This document shows, one piece after another, positions 19,988 to 29,299 of a DNA stretch of 45,563 nt. The DNA is from Bacilli bacterium (GTDB lineage: Bacteria > Bacillota_I > Bacilli_A > ML615J-28 > CAG-313). Numbering within the stretch: the stretch's first letter is position 1; each line of letters opens with the position of its first letter. The notes beneath the pieces were generated by a model. That model did no database searches, was not told where the DNA came from, and saw only the letters and a program-made list of their open reading frames with translations. A program made the position numbers and the translations under genes. Where the stretch lies: the NCBI GenBank assembly GCA_045612145.1, contig JAZKYN010000070.1, forward strand, positions 1-45,563. The letters are read 5' to 3'.

Positions 19988-21541
19988 ATGGATAAATGGA
20001 GAGGGACAGCAGTTCCTAATACTGGTTTAGTAGAAAAAGTTTATTTAAACATTAATCTAAACGATGAAGAAATAACTGAAATTTGTAGCAAGTTGACAAT
20101 GAAGTTAGAAGGTTGGGCTGAGTATATTCTTAACACAGCTGAATCATCAGATATATCGTTGTATATCGTTGACCTTGAAACAGCTTACAATCAAAAAGGT
20201 TATGCAATTATTAACACAATAACTGAAGAAAAATATTATGTTAGTACACAAAACGAAATTAGTGATGAGTACCCTTTTGTCGGTTGGAATCCAGATTTTA
20301 ATGGTGAAATTGTTGTAAATAAAGAATTAACTTCTGAATACAACGGTGTTGCATCAGGAACTCAAAACGAATTAATTTTTGAACTTTTCTCATCAGAACC
20401 TATTATTAAATTAAAATTAAATCTAGATGAATTTTTAACTGACCTTGCAGACTCTATTCGTTATGTAAAAGGCACTGAAGAAAAAGTCAACGCACAAAAT
20501 TATTCTAGTGAAATTAGAAAGTTTAAAGGCAGTAGTGGAGGTGGAGCAAGCACACCTGTTGACAATGGAGCAATTTACGAAGGCAAATATCGTGTTAGAT
20601 ACTTTGACACTGACGGCACTATTCTTAAAATTGAATACGTTGCAGAAGGTGGAAAATTAACTCCACCAGATAATCCAAGTTACGACCCTGACTACTTAAT
20701 TTTTGCTGAATGGAATTATGACACAGAGAATTATATTGTAGGACAACCTACTGATATTGATGCTACATATAACACAGTAGATAATGCAACTTATTTATTC
20801 TGTAGGTTTACTACAAAAACAGGATTAAATCCTACACTTGGTTTTACTGGTGCTAGTCTTATTGATTGGGGCGATGGAACAGTTGATACATATATAGCAC
20901 ACACTTATGCAAATGCAGGTGAATATATTATAAAAATATACGGTGATATTATTGCTGGTAATAAAATATTAGGAGCAAGTTTTCAAAACCAAGCACTACA
21001 AAAAATTTATATAAAAAACGGTTTTACAAATTTAATTGATTCTGCATTCACTGAGTGTAGATGTTTAACAAATATAATAATCCCAGAAAGTGTTACAAGT
21101 ATAGGAAGTAGAGCATTCCAAAATTGCTATAGTTTAACAAATATAATAATCCCAAAAAGTGTCATAAGTATAGGAGGTTCTGCATTTGATAATTGCTATA
21201 GTTTAATAAATATATCGATTCCAGAAGGTGTAACAAGTATAGGAAGTTATACATTCCGAGGTTGTAGCAATTTAAAAAAAGTATCAATCCCAAAAAGTGT
21301 CATAAGTATAGAAAGTTCTGCATTCAATAATTGCTATAGTTTAACAAATTACTTTATATATTGTGATACAGTACCAGCGGTATCAAATACAAATGTGTTT
21401 TCTAACATTAACAAAGGAGCAATTATGTGGGTTAACGACTCCATCATTGAAGAGCTTAAAGTTTCAACAAACTGGTCAGAGTATGCTTTACATATGAAAC
21501 CACTGTCTTGGTATCCAAGTTTGACAGACCCTAACGCATAA
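19988..21541 (+). CDS. receptor-binding protein candidate with BspA/TpLRR-type leucine-rich repeats
   Basis: Four or more 23-aa repeats of the type LTNIIIPxSVxSIGxxAFxNCYS. Confidence 0.7.
   Translation: MDKWRGTAVPNTGLVEKVYLNINLNDEEITEICSKLTMKLEGWAEYILNTAESSDISLYIVDLETAYNQKGYAIINTITEEKYYVSTQNEISDEYPFVGWNPDFNGEIVVNKELTSEYNGVASGTQNELIFELFSSEPIIKLKLNLDEFLTDLADSIRYVKGTEEKVNAQNYSSEIRKFKGSSGGGASTPVDNGAIYEGKYRVRYFDTDGTILKIEYVAEGGKLTPPDNPSYDPDYLIFAEWNYDTENYIVGQPTDIDATYNTVDNATYLFCRFTTKTGLNPTLGFTGASLIDWGDGTVDTYIAHTYANAGEYIIKIYGDIIAGNKILGASFQNQALQKIYIKNGFTNLIDSAFTECRCLTNIIIPESVTSIGSRAFQNCYSLTNIIIPKSVISIGGSAFDNCYSLINISIPEGVTSIGSYTFRGCSNLKKVSIPKSVISIESSAFNNCYSLTNYFIYCDTVPAVSNTNVFSNINKGAIMWVNDSIIEELKVSTNWSEYALHMKPLSWYPSLTDPNA
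21064..21350 (+). repeat. tandem 69-bp repeats (LRR units) with high nucleotide identity
   Basis: For example, TCCCAAAAAGTGTCATAAGTATAG recurs exactly at ~21150 and ~21288. AATTGCTATAGTTTAACAAAT recurs at ~21122 and ~21329. Confidence 0.8.
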
Positions 21542-21555
21542 GGAGGAAAACTAAT

Positions 21556-21804
21556 ATGGTAATAAAAGAATTTTATAGGCAAAGAGAAGACGGCGTGAAG
21601 CTGTACAGAAACGTTGACGTGAAGGTTAACAAAAAGTTTGAGCCATTGAGAGATGAAAACGGCGAGCTAATACGTACTGGTTTTTACATCAAACAAATTG
21701 AAACAGGCGTTGAGTACGCTGAGGCTATCGACGTTGAAAACGCACCTTACACTTATGCAGAGACTGACAAACCAATCGAACCAATTGAGGAGGTTACACA
21801 ATGA
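21556..21804 (+). CDS. small acidic protein following RBP 1
   Basis: AAGGAGG RBS. C-terminal segment YTYAETDKPIEP is related to the tails of the ORFs at 22533 and 24393. Confidence 0.5.
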   Translation: MVIKEFYRQREDGVKLYRNVDVKVNKKFEPLRDENGELIRTGFYIKQIETGVEYAEAIDVENAPYTYAETDKPIEPIEEVTQ

Positions 21805-22523
21805 AAACAGATTACATAATGACGGCGTTGAAACGACCTTCTGATGAACAGTTGGCGGAAGTAAAGCAAGCGTTGGTTGATAAAGGTGTTGCTGATGAGA
21901 ATATATCTAACGATAAATTAGATGAAGTTATAAAAAGTTTAAAACTCGGTGGAGTTAAAGCTCTTTTTGATGCTAAAAAAAGTTGTTACTGTGAGTTTTA
22001 CCAAAGTTATGTAACTGATGAAGAACTAGAAACATTATTAAAATATACTGATACAAGTAACGTTACAAGTATGGAAAGTATGTTTAATGCTTGCTATAAT
22101 ATAACAAAAATACCTATAATAGACTCAAGTAATGTAACAACTATGGCACAGATGTTTTATAATTGTATATCATTAATAGCAGGGCCTCAAATAGAGACAA
22201 GTAATGTAATGAATATGAGCAATATGTTTGGTGGGTGTAAAAACTTAACAACAATACCAGCATATAATGTAAGCTTATGTAATAATTTTGGTAGTATGTT
22301 TTACCAATGTTCAAATCTTGAATCAATTCTTATGTATGGTATGAAATTTAACTTTGATATTTCAGCAAGCACTAAATTTACTAGAGATGCTTTAGTTACA
22401 ATACTTAATAATCTAGCAACAGTAACATCAACTAAAAAACTAACAATGGGTTCAACTAACCTAGCAAAACTTACTGATGAAGACAAAGCTATTGCAACCA
22501 ACAAAGGTTGGACTTTAGCGTAG
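21801..22523 (+). CDS. receptor-binding protein candidate, DUF285/BspA-like LRR
   Basis: Repeats of the type TSNVTSMESMFNACYNITKIP, SSNVTTMAQMFYNCISL and TSNVMNMSNMFGGCKNLTTIP. The N-terminal segment LAEVKQALVDKGV is shared with the ORF at 22766. Confidence 0.65.
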   Translation: MKTDYIMTALKRPSDEQLAEVKQALVDKGVADENISNDKLDEVIKSLKLGGVKALFDAKKSCYCEFYQSYVTDEELETLLKYTDTSNVTSMESMFNACYNITKIPIIDSSNVTTMAQMFYNCISLIAGPQIETSNVMNMSNMFGGCKNLTTIPAYNVSLCNNFGSMFYQCSNLESILMYGMKFNFDISASTKFTRDALVTILNNLATVTSTKKLTMGSTNLAKLTDEDKAIATNKGWTLA

Positions 22524-24598: not shown

Positions 24599-24627
24599 TT
24601 GACAGCAAAAAAAGAATGTGGTATAAT
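24599..24627 (+). promoter_or_regulatory. promoter P5 (TTGACA-17-TATAAT, TGTGG -16 region)
   Basis: Perfect hexamers. It overlaps the upstream part of track ORF 24599..24979, which argues for the downstream start at 24650. Confidence 0.7.
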
Positions 24628-24649
24628 TTTACTCGTGGAGGTAATAGAT

Positions 24650-24979
24650 ATGAACAAAGTAATTCAATTTATCGGTGGCTTCCCTAACGGGTTTGTCAGC
24701 AAGTTGTCATTAATGGTACTGCTTGTATGTTGTGCCGCATTCTTAGTTGTCGGTGTAGTTCAAGTTTTAAAAGACAAGAACGGCATTTATAACTTTAAAA
24801 CAGAATGGTTAAGTATCCTAGTTGCAGAAGCATTATATATTGTTTGTTTCATCATATATATTGCGGTGTTTAAAAAAGTTTTCGTGTTATACGAATTACT
24901 AGCGATTCTTAGCTTAGGCGTATTTACGGGAGTATTTGCGAGCCTAATCGCAGAAAAATTATTCCAACAAAAGAAATAA
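24650..24979 (+). CDS. three-TM membrane protein, holin-like
   Basis: Start at the ATG after GGAGG. Three hydrophobic helices and a basic C-terminus (QQKK). It sits after the tail genes. Confidence 0.5.
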   Translation: MNKVIQFIGGFPNGFVSKLSLMVLLVCCAAFLVVGVVQVLKDKNGIYNFKTEWLSILVAEALYIVCFIIYIAVFKKVFVLYELLAILSLGVFTGVFASLIAEKLFQQKK

Positions 24980-25167
24980 CATTGGGCAGTTAGTTCTTCT
25001 TGTTTTGCGATATTAATACACCACATTATTATTGCAAAAGTTTTTTTCATAAAATTCTTCTAATACAACAGATTAGGAGCAATAATGTGAAAAATATTAT
25101 AGATATTATAAAAGCATTGTTCCTAGTAATAGAAATTTATATTTTTAGTAAAGGAGCAAAAAACAAA

Positions 25168-25662
25168 ATGAAAAACTTATCAAAATGGTTTAAATCAAAT
25201 AAAGGTGCAATCGTATCTTTATTAACATTCGTTCTTTCAATTTCAGATTTACTATTTAACTGGATTTTAGGCGAAAATACAATTTATGTATTAGGCTTCA
25301 ATCTAGTTGGTGTTCTAGGTCTTGCTATTGCTTTAGCTATTGCAGTATTCACTTCAGGGTTCTCAAGTGCAAAAGTGCAAGAAGTTATTGACAAAGCTAA
25401 AAACCAATTAAAATTAGATGCAAACAATGGTTTATCATACGAAGAAAGAGTTAAAATCGGTAAAAAGATTAACGCTTTACAAAAGAAAAAAGCTGAAATC
25501 AAAAAAGAAAATCAAGCAGTTATTGACAACGTAGAAGTTTATAATATTCCTTCAAATGATGATGCTATCAAGTATGAAAACTACAAAAAGCAAACTGCTA
25601 TTTTAGATGGTCAAATCAAAAAACTTAGAATTAAATTAGGCGAAATTAAAGAAGACGAATAA
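25168..25662 (+). CDS. membrane protein with C-terminal coiled coil (alternative in-frame GTG start at 25087)
   Basis: ATG after AAGGAG. Two TM segments are followed by a K/E-rich helix. The upstream GTG (AGGAG 7 nt before it) would add a 27-aa hydrophobic extension. Confidence 0.45.
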   Translation: MKNLSKWFKSNKGAIVSLLTFVLSISDLLFNWILGENTIYVLGFNLVGVLGLAIALAIAVFTSGFSSAKVQEVIDKAKNQLKLDANNGLSYEERVKIGKKINALQKKKAEIKKENQAVIDNVEVYNIPSNDDAIKYENYKKQTAILDGQIKKLRIKLGEIKEDE

Positions 25663-25937: not shown

Positions 25938-26153
25938 ATGAAAAGAAGACAAGTTATCCTAAAAATTGTTGAAAACGATGAAATGAAGATTGAAAAGCTT
26001 TGTTCATCAAAATGTTTATTTAATTGTTCTGAGGTTGTATACTTATTTTTAAACAATACAATAGAAGAAGTTAGCGAAATTTTGAATATGCCTATCCGAA
26101 CCGTTAATAACAAAATCGACAAATTTATTAAGACATTTACAAATGAGAGTTAA
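25938..26153 (+). CDS. small HTH protein resembling sigma-70 region 4
   Basis: IEEVSEILNMPIRTVNNKIDKFIK resembles a region-4 HTH. The RBS is weak. A terminator follows. Confidence 0.35.
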   Translation: MKRRQVILKIVENDEMKIEKLCSSKCLFNCSEVVYLFLNNTIEEVSEILNMPIRTVNNKIDKFIKTFTNES

Positions 26154-26170
26154 AAGCTCTCGTTTTTTTT
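26145..26170 (+). terminator. intrinsic terminator
   Basis: GAGAG/CTCTC stem followed by a T8 run. Confidence 0.55.
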
Positions 26171-26225
26171 ATTTTGGCACAATTTTGGTATTTTTTTAGC
26201 ATTATTTTGGTATTTTTTCAGCATT
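26171..26225 (+). repeat. direct repeats ATTTTGG (x3) including two 22-23-bp units ATTTTGGTATTTTTT(T/C)AGCATT
   Basis: Units at 26182-26203 and 26204-26225, with a partial copy at 26171. They lie ~60 bp upstream of the ORF at 26286. Confidence 0.7.
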
Positions 26226-26285
26226 GTTAAACAAAAATTTCTGTATTATACTCTTGGTGTAAACTTTAATTGAAGGAGAATTTTT

Positions 26286-26693
26286 ATGCAACCTAATTAT
26301 TATAATAATGGTTATGGTAGTTATCCTTATCAACAAAATCAAGTTAATTACCAACAACCTTATCAGCAACCACAACCTACAAGGTTGACTCAAAGTTTAT
26401 TCGTTTTAGTGAACAACGATGCTGAAGCACAAGCTTATATAGTACAACCTAATCAAACAGTTTATTTATTAAATTTAAAAGATTTGATTCTTACTATAAA
26501 AAAAGCTGACAGAGATGGAATGTACGAGCCTGAAAAATATTTCTTAAATAAAGATAAAGACGAAAAGCCAGAGCAAGAGCCTAAATATGTTACAGTTGAC
26601 CAATTTACAAACCTACAAAATCAAATAAATTCTTTATTTCAAATGGTTAAACAAAACAACAATGGCACTCAAAAAAACGGAGGAACTAAATAA
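26286..26693 (+). CDS. protein with Q/N/Y/P-rich N-terminus
   Basis: GAAGGAG RBS. The N-terminal 32 aa read NYYNNGYGSYPYQQNQVNYQQPYQQPQP. No family recognised. Confidence 0.6.
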   Translation: MQPNYYNNGYGSYPYQQNQVNYQQPYQQPQPTRLTQSLFVLVNNDAEAQAYIVQPNQTVYLLNLKDLILTIKKADRDGMYEPEKYFLNKDKDEKPEQEPKYVTVDQFTNLQNQINSLFQMVKQNNNGTQKNGGTK

Positions 26694-26965
26694 TGTATAA
26701 TAATAATCAATTTATGAATGTTCAAAATAATGCGATGCAAAACCTAAGACAAATATTGACGTTAGGGAACGACCCTAATGCACTACAACAAATGGTTTTA
26801 CAAAACAATCCACAATTAAGAATTATAGCAAATCAAATGCAACAAAGTAATTTAACACCAACTCAATACATTATGCAAATGGCTAAACAAAACAACATAC
26901 CTTTAACAGAGCAAATGGTGGAAAATTTAATGCAAAGTTTAAAAGGGATAATCCCACAAAGATAG
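26693..26965 (+). CDS. Q/N-rich helical-repeat protein
   Basis: GGAGG RBS, TAATG coupling. Contains NPQL/MQQ-type repeats. Confidence 0.55.
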   Translation: MYNNNQFMNVQNNAMQNLRQILTLGNDPNALQQMVLQNNPQLRIIANQMQQSNLTPTQYIMQMAKQNNIPLTEQMVENLMQSLKGIIPQR

Positions 26966-27054
26966 GTATTAAGAATTATCAAATTATAGCTCGAGATGTA
27001 ATTTAATAATCTATAAATACAAAAAATTTAACAAGAAAGGTTTTAAAAAATAAT

Positions 27055-27741
27055 ATGTATATCGAAGGAGATGTTCCTGTTGTAACAACAGGTAATAATG
27101 GTTATAACAACGGATTCGGATTTGGTGGAGGTTGGGAAGGCTTAATTGGTCTTATTGCAGTTGCTGCTTTATTCGGTGGTGGTTATGGATTTGGTGGCTT
27201 TGGCTTTGGTGGTAATCGTGGAGGCTATGGTGGAAACTATGCTACACAAGCAGATTTAAGTGCAGGTTTTGCAAATAGCGAAATTATGTCTGACTTAAAC
27301 GATATTTTACTATCTAACCAACAAGGATTTGCAAGCGTTCAACAATCATTGTGTCAAGGATTTAATGGAATCAACACTGCTATTCTTCAAAGTTCAAACG
27401 CTACTGAACGTGGATTTGCAACTTTAGGTTATAACTTAGCTAATTGTTGCTGTGACCTAAAAGGTGCTATTGCAGATGTTAAATACGCAAACGAAAGACA
27501 AACTTGCGACATTATCAATGCAATCAATGCAGGCAACCAACGTTTAGTTGATATTTATACAAGCGATAAGATTGACACATTAAATCGTAAACTTGCAACT
27601 GCTGAAGCTCAATTATCTAATCAAGCTCAAAGTGCTTACATCGTAAGCCAACTTAAAGCACCTGTTCCTATTCCGTCATACACAGTTCCTAATCCGAATT
27701 GCTGCTATGGTGCAGGCGTAGGAATCGCAACAATTCAATAA
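27055..27741 (+). CDS. Gly/Tyr/Phe-rich membrane-anchored protein with Cys-rich C-terminal domain
   Basis: GFGFGGGWEGLIGLIAVAALFGGGYGFGGFGFGGNRGGYGG is followed by a helical Q/N/A-rich domain with CCC and CC clusters. Confidence 0.55.
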   Translation: MYIEGDVPVVTTGNNGYNNGFGFGGGWEGLIGLIAVAALFGGGYGFGGFGFGGNRGGYGGNYATQADLSAGFANSEIMSDLNDILLSNQQGFASVQQSLCQGFNGINTAILQSSNATERGFATLGYNLANCCCDLKGAIADVKYANERQTCDIINAINAGNQRLVDIYTSDKIDTLNRKLATAEAQLSNQAQSAYIVSQLKAPVPIPSYTVPNPNCCYGAGVGIATIQ

Positions 27742-27780
27742 GAATTAAATATTGAAAAAAAGGATTAATTATCCTGTAAT

Positions 27781-27812
27781 AGGGCATAGTTAATTCTATG
27801 TCCTATATTTTT
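27781..27812 (+). terminator. intrinsic terminator
   Basis: AGGGCATAG/CTATGTCCT stem, loop TTAATT, T-rich tail. It shares the core TAGTTAATTCTA with the terminator at 29272. Confidence 0.6.
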
Positions 27813-27836
27813 ATAAAATTATAAGGAGACAAAAAA

Positions 27837-28295
27837 ATGGCAAATGATATTATTAGTTTAATTAATTCTGCTCCACAAGAATTAGCTGAAAACGAAGTAG
27901 TAAATTTAGGCACAGTTTATCGTAGATTTTTAATTACAAGAAAATGCCCTTTAAATAATTTACCAGTAATGTCAAGCAATGGCACAAGTGTAAGTTTAAA
28001 CAAACAAGGACTTTATGATGTTTTATTTACAGCTGTTGTATCCGCTCCAGCCGCAGGCACTGTTACTTTACAATTAGAAGTTGACGGTCAACCTATTGCT
28101 GGTGCTGAAGCATCTGAAACTATAACAACACCTACAACTGAATTAAGAAATCTAAGTATTAACTATGTTGTATTAGTAGATGAAAGTATTGTATTAAATA
28201 TTCCAACAATTTCTTCTAAGACAATTTCTTTAAGAAACGTAGGAGATGAAGCAACAATCGAAAATATCGTTACTACTGTTGTAAAAGAGGTGTAA
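27837..28295 (+). CDS. beta-sandwich protein, possibly C1q/TNF-like (BclA C-terminal domain-like)
   Basis: AAGGAG RBS. The pattern GLYDVLFTAVVS...TVTLQLEVDGQPI...INYVVLV resembles the exosporium BclA/ExsF-type jelly-roll. Similarity judged by eye only. Confidence 0.5.
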   Translation: MANDIISLINSAPQELAENEVVNLGTVYRRFLITRKCPLNNLPVMSSNGTSVSLNKQGLYDVLFTAVVSAPAAGTVTLQLEVDGQPIAGAEASETITTPTTELRNLSINYVVLVDESIVLNIPTISSKTISLRNVGDEATIENIVTTVVKEV

Positions 28296-28298
28296 TTT

Positions 28299-28907
28299 AT
28301 GAATAGAAATAAAGATTACATTATGTCAAGAGACGGTAGAAGTGATATGAGAATGTATCCAAGAATGTATGATGAACGAGGAAGATATGGTTCGAAAGGT
28401 AGAAGTTCTCGTCGTGACAGAGGTCGTGAACCACACGAAATGAGAAATTATGGAAGAAGCAGTTACGCTAGTGACCCACATAGAGAGAGAATGATGGGTG
28501 AAAATTATGAACGCAATGTCCCTTACGGTTATTATGCAGCTTATGGTATGTATCCTCACGATTATGCTAGCCGTGATTATTACGATGGCGGAAAAGACGC
28601 AGAAAACGAATATTACGAAGAATTAGAAGAATGGGGTAAAGAGTTAGAAAAATACGATATATTTCATTTACCTAAAGAAAAAGTAATAGAAAAAGCAAAA
28701 CAAATGGGTGTAACGTTTAAAGATTATGATGAAGAAGAATTTTACGTTACTTATTTAATGCAAATTAGTGATTACAAATCATTACACAATGTATTAAAAG
28801 ACCCAGCTTACTTTATCCATATGGCAAAAGATTTCTTAGAAGACGACGACGCTGAATATTATGGCGGCGAAAAACTATGTCGTTATATGGATTATATTGC
28901 TAAATAA
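28299..28907 (+). CDS. protein with R/Y/S/D-rich disordered N-terminal half
   Basis: The segment RMYDERGRYGSKGRSSRRDRGREPHEMRNYGRSSY is followed by an acidic helical C-terminal half. Confidence 0.55.
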   Translation: MNRNKDYIMSRDGRSDMRMYPRMYDERGRYGSKGRSSRRDRGREPHEMRNYGRSSYASDPHRERMMGENYERNVPYGYYAAYGMYPHDYASRDYYDGGKDAENEYYEELEEWGKELEKYDIFHLPKEKVIEKAKQMGVTFKDYDEEEFYVTYLMQISDYKSLHNVLKDPAYFIHMAKDFLEDDDAEYYGGEKLCRYMDYIAK

Positions 28908-28909
28908 TT

Positions 28910-29278
28910 ATGGCAAGATATGATTTTTACAACGTTAACCCTCTTGGAAAAATTGAAGAAGATTGCGTTTGTAGAGCGATTTCAGGTGCTTTAGAAGAAG
29001 ATTATTATGTGATTGAAAATAAACTACAATTAGTTGGAGATTTATTTGATTGTGAAAAATTATGTGTTTGTTGCTATAAATTTTTATTAGATGAAGTATT
29101 TGGTCTAAATAGAATTGAGGAGTTCAGCGGTCTTACGATTTCTGAATTTGCCCAACTCAATCCTATTGGAACTTTTATAATAAGAACCGACGGTCACTTA
29201 ACACATATTAAAAATGGAGTGTGCAGAGACACTTGGAATTGCACGAATATGATTGTCAGAATTGTATGGGTGGTGTAG
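28910..29278 (+). CDS. small putative papain-fold Cys/His hydrolase
   Basis: N-terminal NPLGKIEEDCVCRAIS (candidate nucleophile Cys) and C-terminal DGHLTHIKNGVCRDTWN (candidate His). Family not identified. Confidence 0.4.
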   Translation: MARYDFYNVNPLGKIEEDCVCRAISGALEEDYYVIENKLQLVGDLFDCEKLCVCCYKFLLDEVFGLNRIEEFSGLTISEFAQLNPIGTFIIRTDGHLTHIKNGVCRDTWNCTNMIVRIVWVV

Positions 29279-29299
29279 TTAATTCTACACCATTTTTTT
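29272..29299 (+). terminator. intrinsic terminator ending the plus-strand arm
   Basis: GGTGTAG/CTACACC stem, loop TTAATT, T7 run. Confidence 0.7.

Follow-up and report, generated by a model that had tools for sequence, protein, structure and literature searches.

ExsY, CotY and CdeC are cysteine-rich proteins of the spore surface, and the exosporium nap of the Bacillus cereus group contains BclA, which combines an N-terminal exosporium-targeting region, a collagen-like stalk and a characteristic C-terminal domain. Among viruses, fibres built of a rod and a knob are represented by the head fibre gp8.5 of phi29, the adenovirus fibre, sigma-1 of reovirus and P5 of PRD1. According to a 2026 paper on phage SPO1 (PMC13401047), it had remained unclear whether phase separation contributes to phage development. 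Here, a cluster of six genes, designated A to F, was analysed; it occupies positions 26286-29278 of contig JAZKYN010000070.1 (assembly GCA_045612145.1, a Bacilli bacterium), and the whole stretch of 45,563 nucleotides is referred to as the window. A first-pass annotation made from the letters of the window had taken this cluster for a genuine functional cassette of low-complexity and cross-linkable proteins that could self-assemble into a matrix or condensate, or else remodel the host spore or cell surface. The cluster represents a single copy of a collinear module, which was recovered from each of the 166 related loci examined; the locus is more than a single-genome oddity, i.e., it is one instance of an abundant mobile module with six slots.

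A collinear module with fixed slots

The open reading frames (ORFs) of 166 loci that contain C were searched with iterative profiles. Members of the A family were found in 141 of these loci, of B in 112, of D in 106, of F in 76 and of E in 46, and a small upstream gene, h, was detected in 42; the module genes always have the same order and the same orientation. This synteny establishes the cluster as a genuine cassette. The co-oriented genes lie where the first-pass annotation had placed them, but it spoke of seven genes while listing six; six were found, and the only candidate for a seventh is h (25938-26153).

Alternative families, named D2, E2 and F2, sit where the D, E and F profiles found nothing. 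The order of the slots is fixed: h, when present, is followed by A, B, C, then D or D2, then E or E2, and finally F or F2. Slot occupancy was counted in the 115 loci with complete flanks, where C, as the query gene, is present in 115, A in 102 and B in 83. The D slot is filled in 113 loci (79 with D and 34 with D2, never both), the E slot in 109 (31 with E and 78 with E2, never both), and the F slot in 83 (57 with F and 28 with F2, both being present in two loci). Nearly all combinations of these fillers occur, as if they were almost freely shuffled. When the two families of each slot (D/D2, E/E2 and F/F2) were aligned with hhalign, no homology was detected; these alignments were run without secondary-structure information, so a very remote kinship is possible. 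Since non-homologous and mutually exclusive fillers occupy fixed slots, selection acts on the roles and not on particular sequences. A minority of loci (L001, 5822-6438, and 20 and 11 other loci) contain two additional small, conserved families, G3 (approx. 67 aa) and G4 (approx. 104 aa), which are encoded within the module or directly behind it.

The core protein C is widely distributed. By tblastn, 38 annotated phage records were found to contain relatives, among them records of crAss-like phages, of a Bacteroides phage and of Clostridium perfringens phages; relatives are also present in at least 551 IMG/VR viral contigs, and in 87 contigs of GTDB species representatives, all of which are metagenome-assembled genomes (MAGs), the contigs being mostly phage-sized. 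In a large protein database C accounts for at least 4,598 clusters at 90% identity, all of them annotated as hypothetical and none with a Pfam domain. Against PHROGs, A to F matched only families of unknown function, with no structural or lysis PHROG among them, and Pfam, NCBIfam and PADLOC gave nothing above threshold for the module proteins of the window. Likewise, no holin, spanin or endolysin family of Pfam or PHROGs was matched by A to F, and a comparison of ten module proteins with PADLOC-DB v2 gave noise-level matches only (E >= 0.026), with no defence-system component. The earlier statement that none of the products looks like a standard phage function is borne out by these results; confident matches to ordinary virion or lysis functions, which would have undermined the cassette, were looked for and did not appear. 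The literature on DUF7841, phage BclA-like cassettes, conserved gut-virome cassettes and the names of the cultured phages offered no functional data. Thus, the module, present in hundreds of viral contigs of gut-type samples, is very abundant in gut phages and undescribed, and no paper or curated family gives its function; solving it would give a role to a sizeable block of the dark matter of gut phages.

In the window, the locus is arranged as h, A-B-C and D-E-F, with terminators after h, C and F. The six genes are on the plus strand and start with ATG: A (26286-26693), B (26693-26965), C (27055-27741), D (27837-28295), E (28299-28907) and F (28910-29278). A clear Shine-Dalgarno sequence precedes four of the six (A, B, D and E), and the gaps inside the units are tight (-1 nt for A/B, 3 nt for D/E and 2 nt for E/F). 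A terminator-like hairpin on the plus strand (27779-27806), with an 11-bp stem followed by a T-run, splits A-B-C from D-E-F, and a second one on the same strand (29268-29295) closes the module after F; it is faced on the minus strand by the convergent terminator of the replication/recombination arm (29372-29342). The two terminator-delimited units recognised earlier are therefore confirmed.

The h gene (25938-26153, plus strand) encodes a 71-residue helix-turn-helix (HTH) protein that resembles sigma-70 region 4 and is a candidate regulator of the module; its matches to Sigma70_r4_2, to other HTH families and to SigW-type models are all sub-threshold. A homologue is located directly upstream of A in 42 of the 166 loci. 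Downstream of the terminator of h (26141-26165), two copies of a tandem 22-bp repeat, TTTTGGTATTTTTT[T/C]AGCATT (26181-26226, plus strand), constitute a candidate operator or activator site. An 18-mer of this repeat is present in two exact copies (26185-26202 and 26207-26224) and was found nowhere else in the window. The repeat abuts a sigma-70-like promoter, TTGTTA-17-TATACT (26224-26252), between h and A. In other loci carrying h, phased short repeats are found in the same place, i.e., upstream of A in L132, L006-L008/L093 and L075, where GTCAC, GTCAT or GCAC recurs three to four times at a spacing of about 11 nt. The repeats before A look like binding sites for h.

The products of the module

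The N-terminus of C is rich in Gly and aromatic residues (in the window, residues 13-62 are 44% Gly and 66% G/Y/F/W) and surrounds a hydrophobic helix at residues 28-40; cysteines are found at positions 100, 131-133 (CCC), 151 and 216-217 (CC). In the family, the CCC is invariant, a PxPxYxVPNPNCCY tail is near-invariant and a GCGC tail is usual, with a median of 11 Cys per protein and a median Kyte-Doolittle value of 1.66 for the hydrophobic 17-mer. The AF2 monomer model of C is poor (pLDDT 57) and shows a single unbroken helix of 125 residues (76-200); from this uninterrupted helix, in a model of low confidence, an obligate oligomeric rod would be expected. The profile of the C family gave nothing meaningful against the PDB. 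The microvirus H pilot protein (PF04687) was considered as a relative and rejected, given that C scored 17.9 bits against a cut-off of 22.7 and that no H chain was retrieved from the PDB at E <= 10; the likeness is architectural only, consisting of a Gly-rich hydrophobic N-terminus and a coiled coil. A resemblance of the N-terminus to the YjcZ 'tiny TM' sporulation proteins was also discarded, since it had no NCBIfam match.

The Cys counts of C and its D partner correlate across loci (rho 0.41, p = 8e-5, shared ancestry uncorrected). The lineage of the window is Cys-poor: its C lacks the GCGC tail common in relatives, and its D has one Cys compared with a family median of 4.5-5. In this lineage, the Cys-rich tail of C and all but one of the D cysteines were lost together.

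D was said in the first-pass annotation to recall the C-terminal domain of BclA, and this likeness was substantiated at the level of the family. The D protein of the window (152 aa) reaches 19.1 bits against Pfam BclA_C (PF18573; E = 1.2e-3), which is below the cut-off of 38; in the family, 17 of 30 members match (best E = 3e-11), and the four best matches of the family profile in the PDB are all BclA (E 0.0045-0.017). D is thus assigned by profile as a remote member of BclA_C through its family and not by its own score. The family alignment contains a G-x-Y-x-V-x-F strand motif, typical of jelly rolls of the C1q/TNF type, and this pattern supports the prediction of D as a stand-alone beta-sandwich of that class and as a putative trimeric jelly roll. 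Exhaustive phmmer searches collected 138 clusters of D, nearly all of them stand-alone proteins of 130-150 aa that lack a collagen stalk, and the GXX repeats that would be expected of a BclA-type exosporium glycoprotein are absent from the D of the window. With D alone, tblastn and pattern scans found nothing and a single-sequence PDB search gave noise; its relatives were reached only through synteny plus profiles. Some long proteins with D-like repeats (P0270) turned out to be ordinary surface proteins with Ig-like repeats and were uninformative. D2, which forms at least 2,773 clusters, is a beta-rich protein of approx. 134 aa with a C-x3-C-x2-C at the N-terminus and a CC near the C-terminus; its profile retrieved nothing meaningful from the PDB.

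E has a disordered N-terminal half rich in R/Y/D/M/G (63% of residues 1-100 in the window) and a C-terminal helical domain of the DUF7841 type. Fifteen of the 17 aligned members of the E family match DUF7841 (PF25223; best E = 2e-31) and the E of the window has no match at E <= 0.1, so that by profile E belongs to DUF7841 at the family level; no functional literature was found for this domain. E2 has approx. 170 aa, with helical ends and a middle region rich in R/D/M/Y/G. The profiles of E and E2 gave nothing meaningful against the PDB. Both proteins contain a stretch with about 53% R/Y/D/M, compared with 17-30% in the other families, and they share a motif, R-[DN]-[SGE]-R-G-R-[YF] (typically RRDSRGRYMEG), that is present in 10 of 46 E and 32 of 118 E2 proteins. 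The same motif was found in none of the other module proteins and in 0 of 3,211 other ORFs of the same loci. A looser version, D.RGR[YF], occurs in 11 E and 33 E2 proteins versus 0.18 and 0.085 expected from composition-preserving shuffles, and the E of the window carries a degenerate copy, DERGRYG. By eye, the low-complexity region of E shows no tandem repeat. There is no CotH-like gene among the annotated genes of the window, where no search aimed at CotH was made.

The presence of the motif in E or E2 is associated with the filler of the next slot. Loci with the motif contain F in 25 cases, F2 in one and neither in six, and those lacking it contain F in 27 cases, F2 in 24 and neither in 12; the motif therefore co-occurs with F rather than with F2 (odds ratio 4.8, p = 0.001). 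From this pattern in the sequences, it may be suggested that F docks at the motif or cleaves there. In L171 (12202-12963), which is closely related to the window, a gene for a GIY-YIG/NUMOD3 homing endonuclease is inserted between E and F, and genes for endonucleases of the HNH and I-HmuI types flank the C-like genes of crAss-like cr52_1 and of Bacteroides phage C3_41T2LP.

F has 122 residues, and residues N8, D18, C19, R22, G95, H96 and D107 are invariant; for N8, C19, H96 and D107 this holds in 19 diverse homologues as well as in 39 close ones. The AF2 model is of high confidence (pLDDT 95, pTM 0.88) and shows an alpha+beta protein in which Cys19 starts a helix (19-28) and His96 starts a strand (96-101). 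N8, C19, H96 and D107 correspond to the Asn, helix-start Cys, strand His and Asp expected of a papain-type catalytic set. No sequence match to F was found in Pfam or in the PDB. When the model was compared with the PDB using Foldseek, the best match was Tae4 (E = 0.02, TM 0.34), followed by Josephin, staphopain C and TssM, none of them significant. Against BFVD, a library of viral structures, there were 22 significant matches, with TM values up to 0.88; the matched proteins are uncharacterised and come from a wide variety of phages. One protein with a Josephin domain and one with a peptidase C39 domain were obtained at E = 0.02-0.1. F corresponds to PHROG 3754. Sequence and model together thus assign F to a phage-wide family of predicted miniature thiol enzymes of the papain fold that was recruited into the module. 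The subfamily present in the window has an extra cluster of conserved cysteines (C48, C52, C54 and C55) that lacks a counterpart in the other F subfamilies; it may be a metal site or a disulfide knot.

F2, which is absent from the window, has approx. 105 aa, with an invariant HExxH and an invariant EE. In the PDB its best match is the minigluzincin MJ1213 (marginal, E = 0.005), followed by the WLM and IrrE metallopeptidases, which places F2 in this class of predicted zinc peptidases. The Cys...His pair noted in F by the first-pass annotation as papain- or transglutaminase-like was upheld in its papain-type part by the conserved Asn/Cys/His/Asp set and the confident model. The role as a cross-linker was not: the triad of F is compatible with the transglutaminase type, yet an HExxH metallopeptidase, which can hydrolyse but cannot cross-link, occupies this slot in 28 of 115 loci. 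Given that a thiol enzyme and an HExxH metallopeptidase alternate in this slot, the shared activity would most simply be the hydrolysis of peptide bonds and not cross-linking.

A consists of a disordered N-terminus rich in Q/N/Y/P, a conserved domain of approx. 55 aa and a C-terminal helix. In the window, 81% of residues 1-32 are Q/N/Y/P, and in 142 members of the family the first 45 residues have a median of 60% Q/N/Y/P/G. In the 141 loci where it was found, A is always directly upstream of B/C; it gave no match to Pfam or the PDB, the family profile included. B is a helical protein of 90 aa rich in Met, Gln and Asn (37% Q+N, nine Met), with an invariant Pro, and its family is represented in 112 of the 166 loci. 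The B profile retrieved nothing meaningful from the PDB, only weak matches to small helical domains. The top match, 'Gogy' (7bqq), was discounted because no single stretch of the alignment was significant (per-stretch E 0.55-17). Four of 34 members of the family showed weak XPC-binding matches (E >= 0.03), which makes an STI1/DP-type chaperone domain a lead and not a finding. As far as profiles can detect, A and B have no relatives outside the module. The compositional claims of the first-pass annotation thus hold numerically, and the biases are conserved across large protein families, hence they are not due to chance. Because this low complexity is conserved, a self-assembling matrix or condensate stays under consideration.

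The features of D and of the F slot bear directly on the proposal that the cassette adds to or remodels the exosporium or coat of the spore, with a BclA-like nap, a Cys-rich component similar to the basal layer, a CotG-like protein and a cross-linker. This proposal agrees with the relationship of D to BclA_C, with the high Cys content of C, D and D2, which recalls that of ExsY, CotY and CdeC, and with the carriers themselves, many of which were binned with Clostridia and six of which are phages of C. perfringens. However, C and E are also found together in crAss-like and Bacteroides phages, and Prevotella, Gastranaerophilales and Mollicutes are among the MAG bins; the collagen stalk and the N-terminal targeting region of BclA are missing from D, and in 34 of 115 loci (approx. 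30%) the unrelated D2 takes the place of D. In addition, the F slot is a peptidase slot and not a cross-linker slot, the promoter is sigma-A-like instead of sporulation-specific, and the carriers include phages isolated as virulent. The host range beyond spore-formers, the stalkless D, the swap with D2, the peptidase slot and the promoter therefore disfavour a function in the spore, which we regard as very improbable.

Genome position and dispensability

The position of the module differs between genomes. In the window, in the closely related L170 and L171 and in Bajarodcaudo virus 5, it lies behind the lysis genes, where the late arm ends. Dulem virus 39 has it beside an integrase gene, whereas in Bajarodcaudo virus 2 and Dulem virus 35 it is flanked by the genes for the portal and the major capsid protein; in the C. 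perfringens phages and in Bacteroides phage C3_41T2LP it is found among early or recombination genes. In a crAss-like phage, C is paired with an E/DUF7841 protein among tail genes and genes of a diversity-generating retroelement (DGR).

A segment of 2.16 kb of phage HMD-PC1 (4004-6167), which contains A, B, C, D2 and a small extra gene, is absent from phiCP39-O, where the flanks, 88-96% identical, meet at one junction. The product gp44 of phiCP39-O is the C-terminal part of G4, surviving at the deletion junction. The C. perfringens phages vB_CpeS-17DYC and PMQ04 also carry the module; C is likewise absent from phiCP26F, phiCP13O, phiCP34O and phiCP9O. The module-less C. perfringens phages were isolated as virulent, propagating phages (PMC3118219); therefore, the module is not needed for virion formation or for lysis. 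These results establish the module as accessory, horizontally mobile and dispensable in cultured phages, and such natural plus/minus pairs of cultured C. perfringens phages make the question of its function directly testable.

Dispensability is compatible with a decoration of the virion, and it could be proposed that the C rod and a D or D2 knob form an optional head or tail fibre, with A and E as assembly or scaffold factors and F as a maturation protease. The architecture of a rod plus a beta-sandwich knob fits this proposal, other annotators have labelled C homologues as 'viral fiber' or 'spike glycoprotein', and in two phages the module separates the portal gene from the major capsid gene, while in the window it comes last in the late arm. 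On the contrary, decorations normally co-evolve with one capsid lattice and are encoded among late genes, and this module is shared by siphovirus-like and crAss-like genomes and also occurs in early or recombination regions. Its hydrophobic helix of the membrane type in C, its own regulator and promoter, and the absence of any structural PHROG match point in the same direction, and we consider a virion appendage unlikely, although it is a serious rival of the main reading.

The same distribution could reflect a module for conflict at the cell envelope, i.e., a membrane-anchored complex for superinfection exclusion, defence or anti-defence, with the peptidase as its activator or effector. The module occupies positions typical of cargo genes ('morons'), after the lysis genes and beside the integrase, it is polymorphic in presence between near-identical phages, and its core protein C is predicted to be anchored in the membrane. 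Moreover, fixed slots with shuffled non-homologous parts and a small HTH regulator are hallmarks of conflict systems. Nevertheless, none of the components has a PADLOC match, nucleases, NTPases and other usual effector domains are lacking, and several of the carriers are apparently virulent phages. Nor do the exclusion and defence systems known so far feature a cap similar to BclA or disordered proteins of the prion-like and Arg/Tyr-rich kinds. On balance, this explanation seems to us doubtful, although it too is a serious rival.

The window itself is a siphovirus-like phage genome of approx. 45.5 kb with about 29% GC, and it has no relative at the DNA level among 50,697 annotated phages. The structural arm, on the plus strand, contains the genes for the large terminase (3435), the portal (5543) and the major head protein (8347), followed by tail genes up to approx. 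24.4 kb. The convergent replication/recombination arm, whose minus-strand genes start from 29383, contains genes for RecE-like, ERCC4, RecT, SbcC-like, replisome organiser and HNH proteins. The six-gene cluster is located at the 3' end of the plus-strand arm, directly before the convergence point. The genes for membrane proteins at 24599-25662, previously described as lysis-like, have almost no relatives in the 166 loci; the sole homologue of 25000-25662 among them is in L088, and this pair lies outside the module. No recognisable endolysin was found among the genes of the window that were scanned, the plus-strand arm included. Two proteins of the tail region (19988-21541 and 21801-22523) contain BspA-type leucine-rich repeats (LRR; 3e-34) and the 'Mycoplasma' DUF285 (1e-14), and the close module relatives of the window are binned in Anaeroplasmataceae and Bacilli MAGs. 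The lack of an endolysin, the BspA-type LRR/DUF285 proteins, the 29% GC and the Anaeroplasmataceae/Bacilli bins together hint at a wall-less or Mollicutes-like host.

The lack of a recognisable endolysin in the window could also suggest that the module has a function in lysis, C being a large single-pass holin or timing protein (cf. T4 holin T) and F a cell-wall peptidase that replaces the endolysin. Putative lysis genes precede the module both in the window and in Bajarodcaudo virus 5, and the best fold match of F in the PDB is the peptidoglycan amidase Tae4. However, the C. perfringens phages that bear the module also carry a separate, normal amidase and holin, and their relatives lyse without the module. 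F is absent from about half of the loci, its match to Tae4 is not significant (E = 0.02, TM 0.34) and no lysis PHROG was matched; a host that is unusual or perhaps lacks a wall, as indicated by the DUF285 and BspA-type LRR tail proteins, would account better for the missing endolysin. A function in lysis is, in our opinion, hardly probable.

A possible assembly and its relation to known systems

The strict order of the slots, the interchangeable unrelated parts, the two mini-peptidases and the pair of disordered proteins that share a motif strongly indicate that a multi-protein mechanism is under selection. From the sequences and the models, we tentatively propose, as the best explanation, that the module is mobile accessory DNA for an assembly of rod and cap that is tethered to the membrane, has disordered partner proteins and is matured by its own peptidase. 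This proposal sharpens the compartment or matrix suggested in the first-pass annotation, an idea that survives the analysis. C would oligomerise into a rod through its 125-residue helix, and this rod would be tethered to the cytoplasmic membrane by the hydrophobic helix flanked by Gly and aromatic residues. The invariant Pro/Cys tail of C would dock a small beta-sandwich cap, in this case the BclA-C-like D, and the cysteines of C and D could lock the assembly through disulfide bonds or metal ions. A, rich in Tyr/Gln/Asn, and E, with its Arg/Tyr-rich region and DUF7841, would act as multivalent partners that thicken the assembly into a matrix or condensate, and B would be a small helical adaptor or chaperone. 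F would be a dedicated peptidase for the maturation of one component, most likely the E-slot protein at or near the RRDSRGRY-type motif, and h would control the promoter of the module. Such an assembly would be made in the infected cell and would not be needed for virions; its possible benefits include the organisation or protection of the infection and the alteration of the envelope.

Several points weigh against this proposal. The evidence for the mechanism comes from sequence and models; we infer the oligomeric state of C, its insertion in the membrane and its contact with D, and the model of C is of low confidence (pLDDT 57). The hydrophobic helix of C is short and of borderline hydrophobicity, and the charge distribution leaves its topology unfixed. 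D, A and E have no signal peptides, so exposure at the surface would need lysis or another export route. Approximately 28% of the complete loci lack a recognisable peptidase, and in some phages the module is inside the head-gene cluster, which would fit a role in the virion too. In addition, the association of the motif with F and that between the cysteines of C and D were not corrected for shared ancestry. A broader version of the rod-and-cap proposal, in which the module would be a portable kit of gut phages from hosts of several phyla, whose membrane-tethered and Cys-locked rod-and-cap lattice nucleates a protease-matured condensate of Tyr-rich and Arg-rich disordered proteins, i.e., an organelle or coat that organises or shields the infection, is rather improbable at present. 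If the reading as an assembly or condensate were true, it would represent a new type of phage-built cellular structure.

The closest described systems resemble different parts of the module. D is similar to the C-terminal domain of BclA in its profile match, in the BclA structures that are its top PDB matches and in its strand motif; it differs in that it lacks the collagen-like stalk and the N-terminal exosporium-targeting region, is encoded by phages, including phages of non-spore-formers, and can be swapped with the unrelated D2. With ExsY/CotY, CdeC and CotG, the module shares a high Cys content in C, D and D2 and a Tyr/Arg-rich low complexity in E; in contrast, no sequence relationship was detected, the hosts extend beyond spore-formers, and the partner enzyme is a predicted peptidase instead of a kinase or a transglutaminase.

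In the F slot, F has in common with the papain-fold peptidases and amidases (Tae4, Josephin, staphopain and peptidase C39) the ordered Asn...Cys...His...Asp set and the alpha+beta fold, but it has only 122 aa and no significant match to a solved structure or a Pfam family. Similarly, F2 shares with the minigluzincins (selecase MJ1213 and projannalysin) and with WLM/IrrE an HExxH and a downstream Glu within approx. 105 aa; unlike these, it is phage-encoded and sits in the slot held by F in the window, and the match is marginal.

The disordered proteins recall the prion-like and RGG sticker scaffolds of the FUS family, since A is rich in Q/N/Y, E and E2 in Arg/Tyr and C in Gly/Tyr/Phe, and in these proteins the composition is conserved and not the sequence; the likeness is purely a compositional analogy. 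Finally, the predicted architecture of C and D differs from that of the rod-plus-knob fibres (phi29 gp8.5, adenovirus, reovirus sigma-1 and PRD1 P5) in that C and D are separate polypeptides, C has a membrane-type helix and Cys clusters, and the module occurs with more than one virion type and also outside the late genes. Nevertheless, it shares with these fibres the combination of a long helical rod and a beta-sandwich cap and, as is the case for the head fibre of phi29, the module is dispensable.

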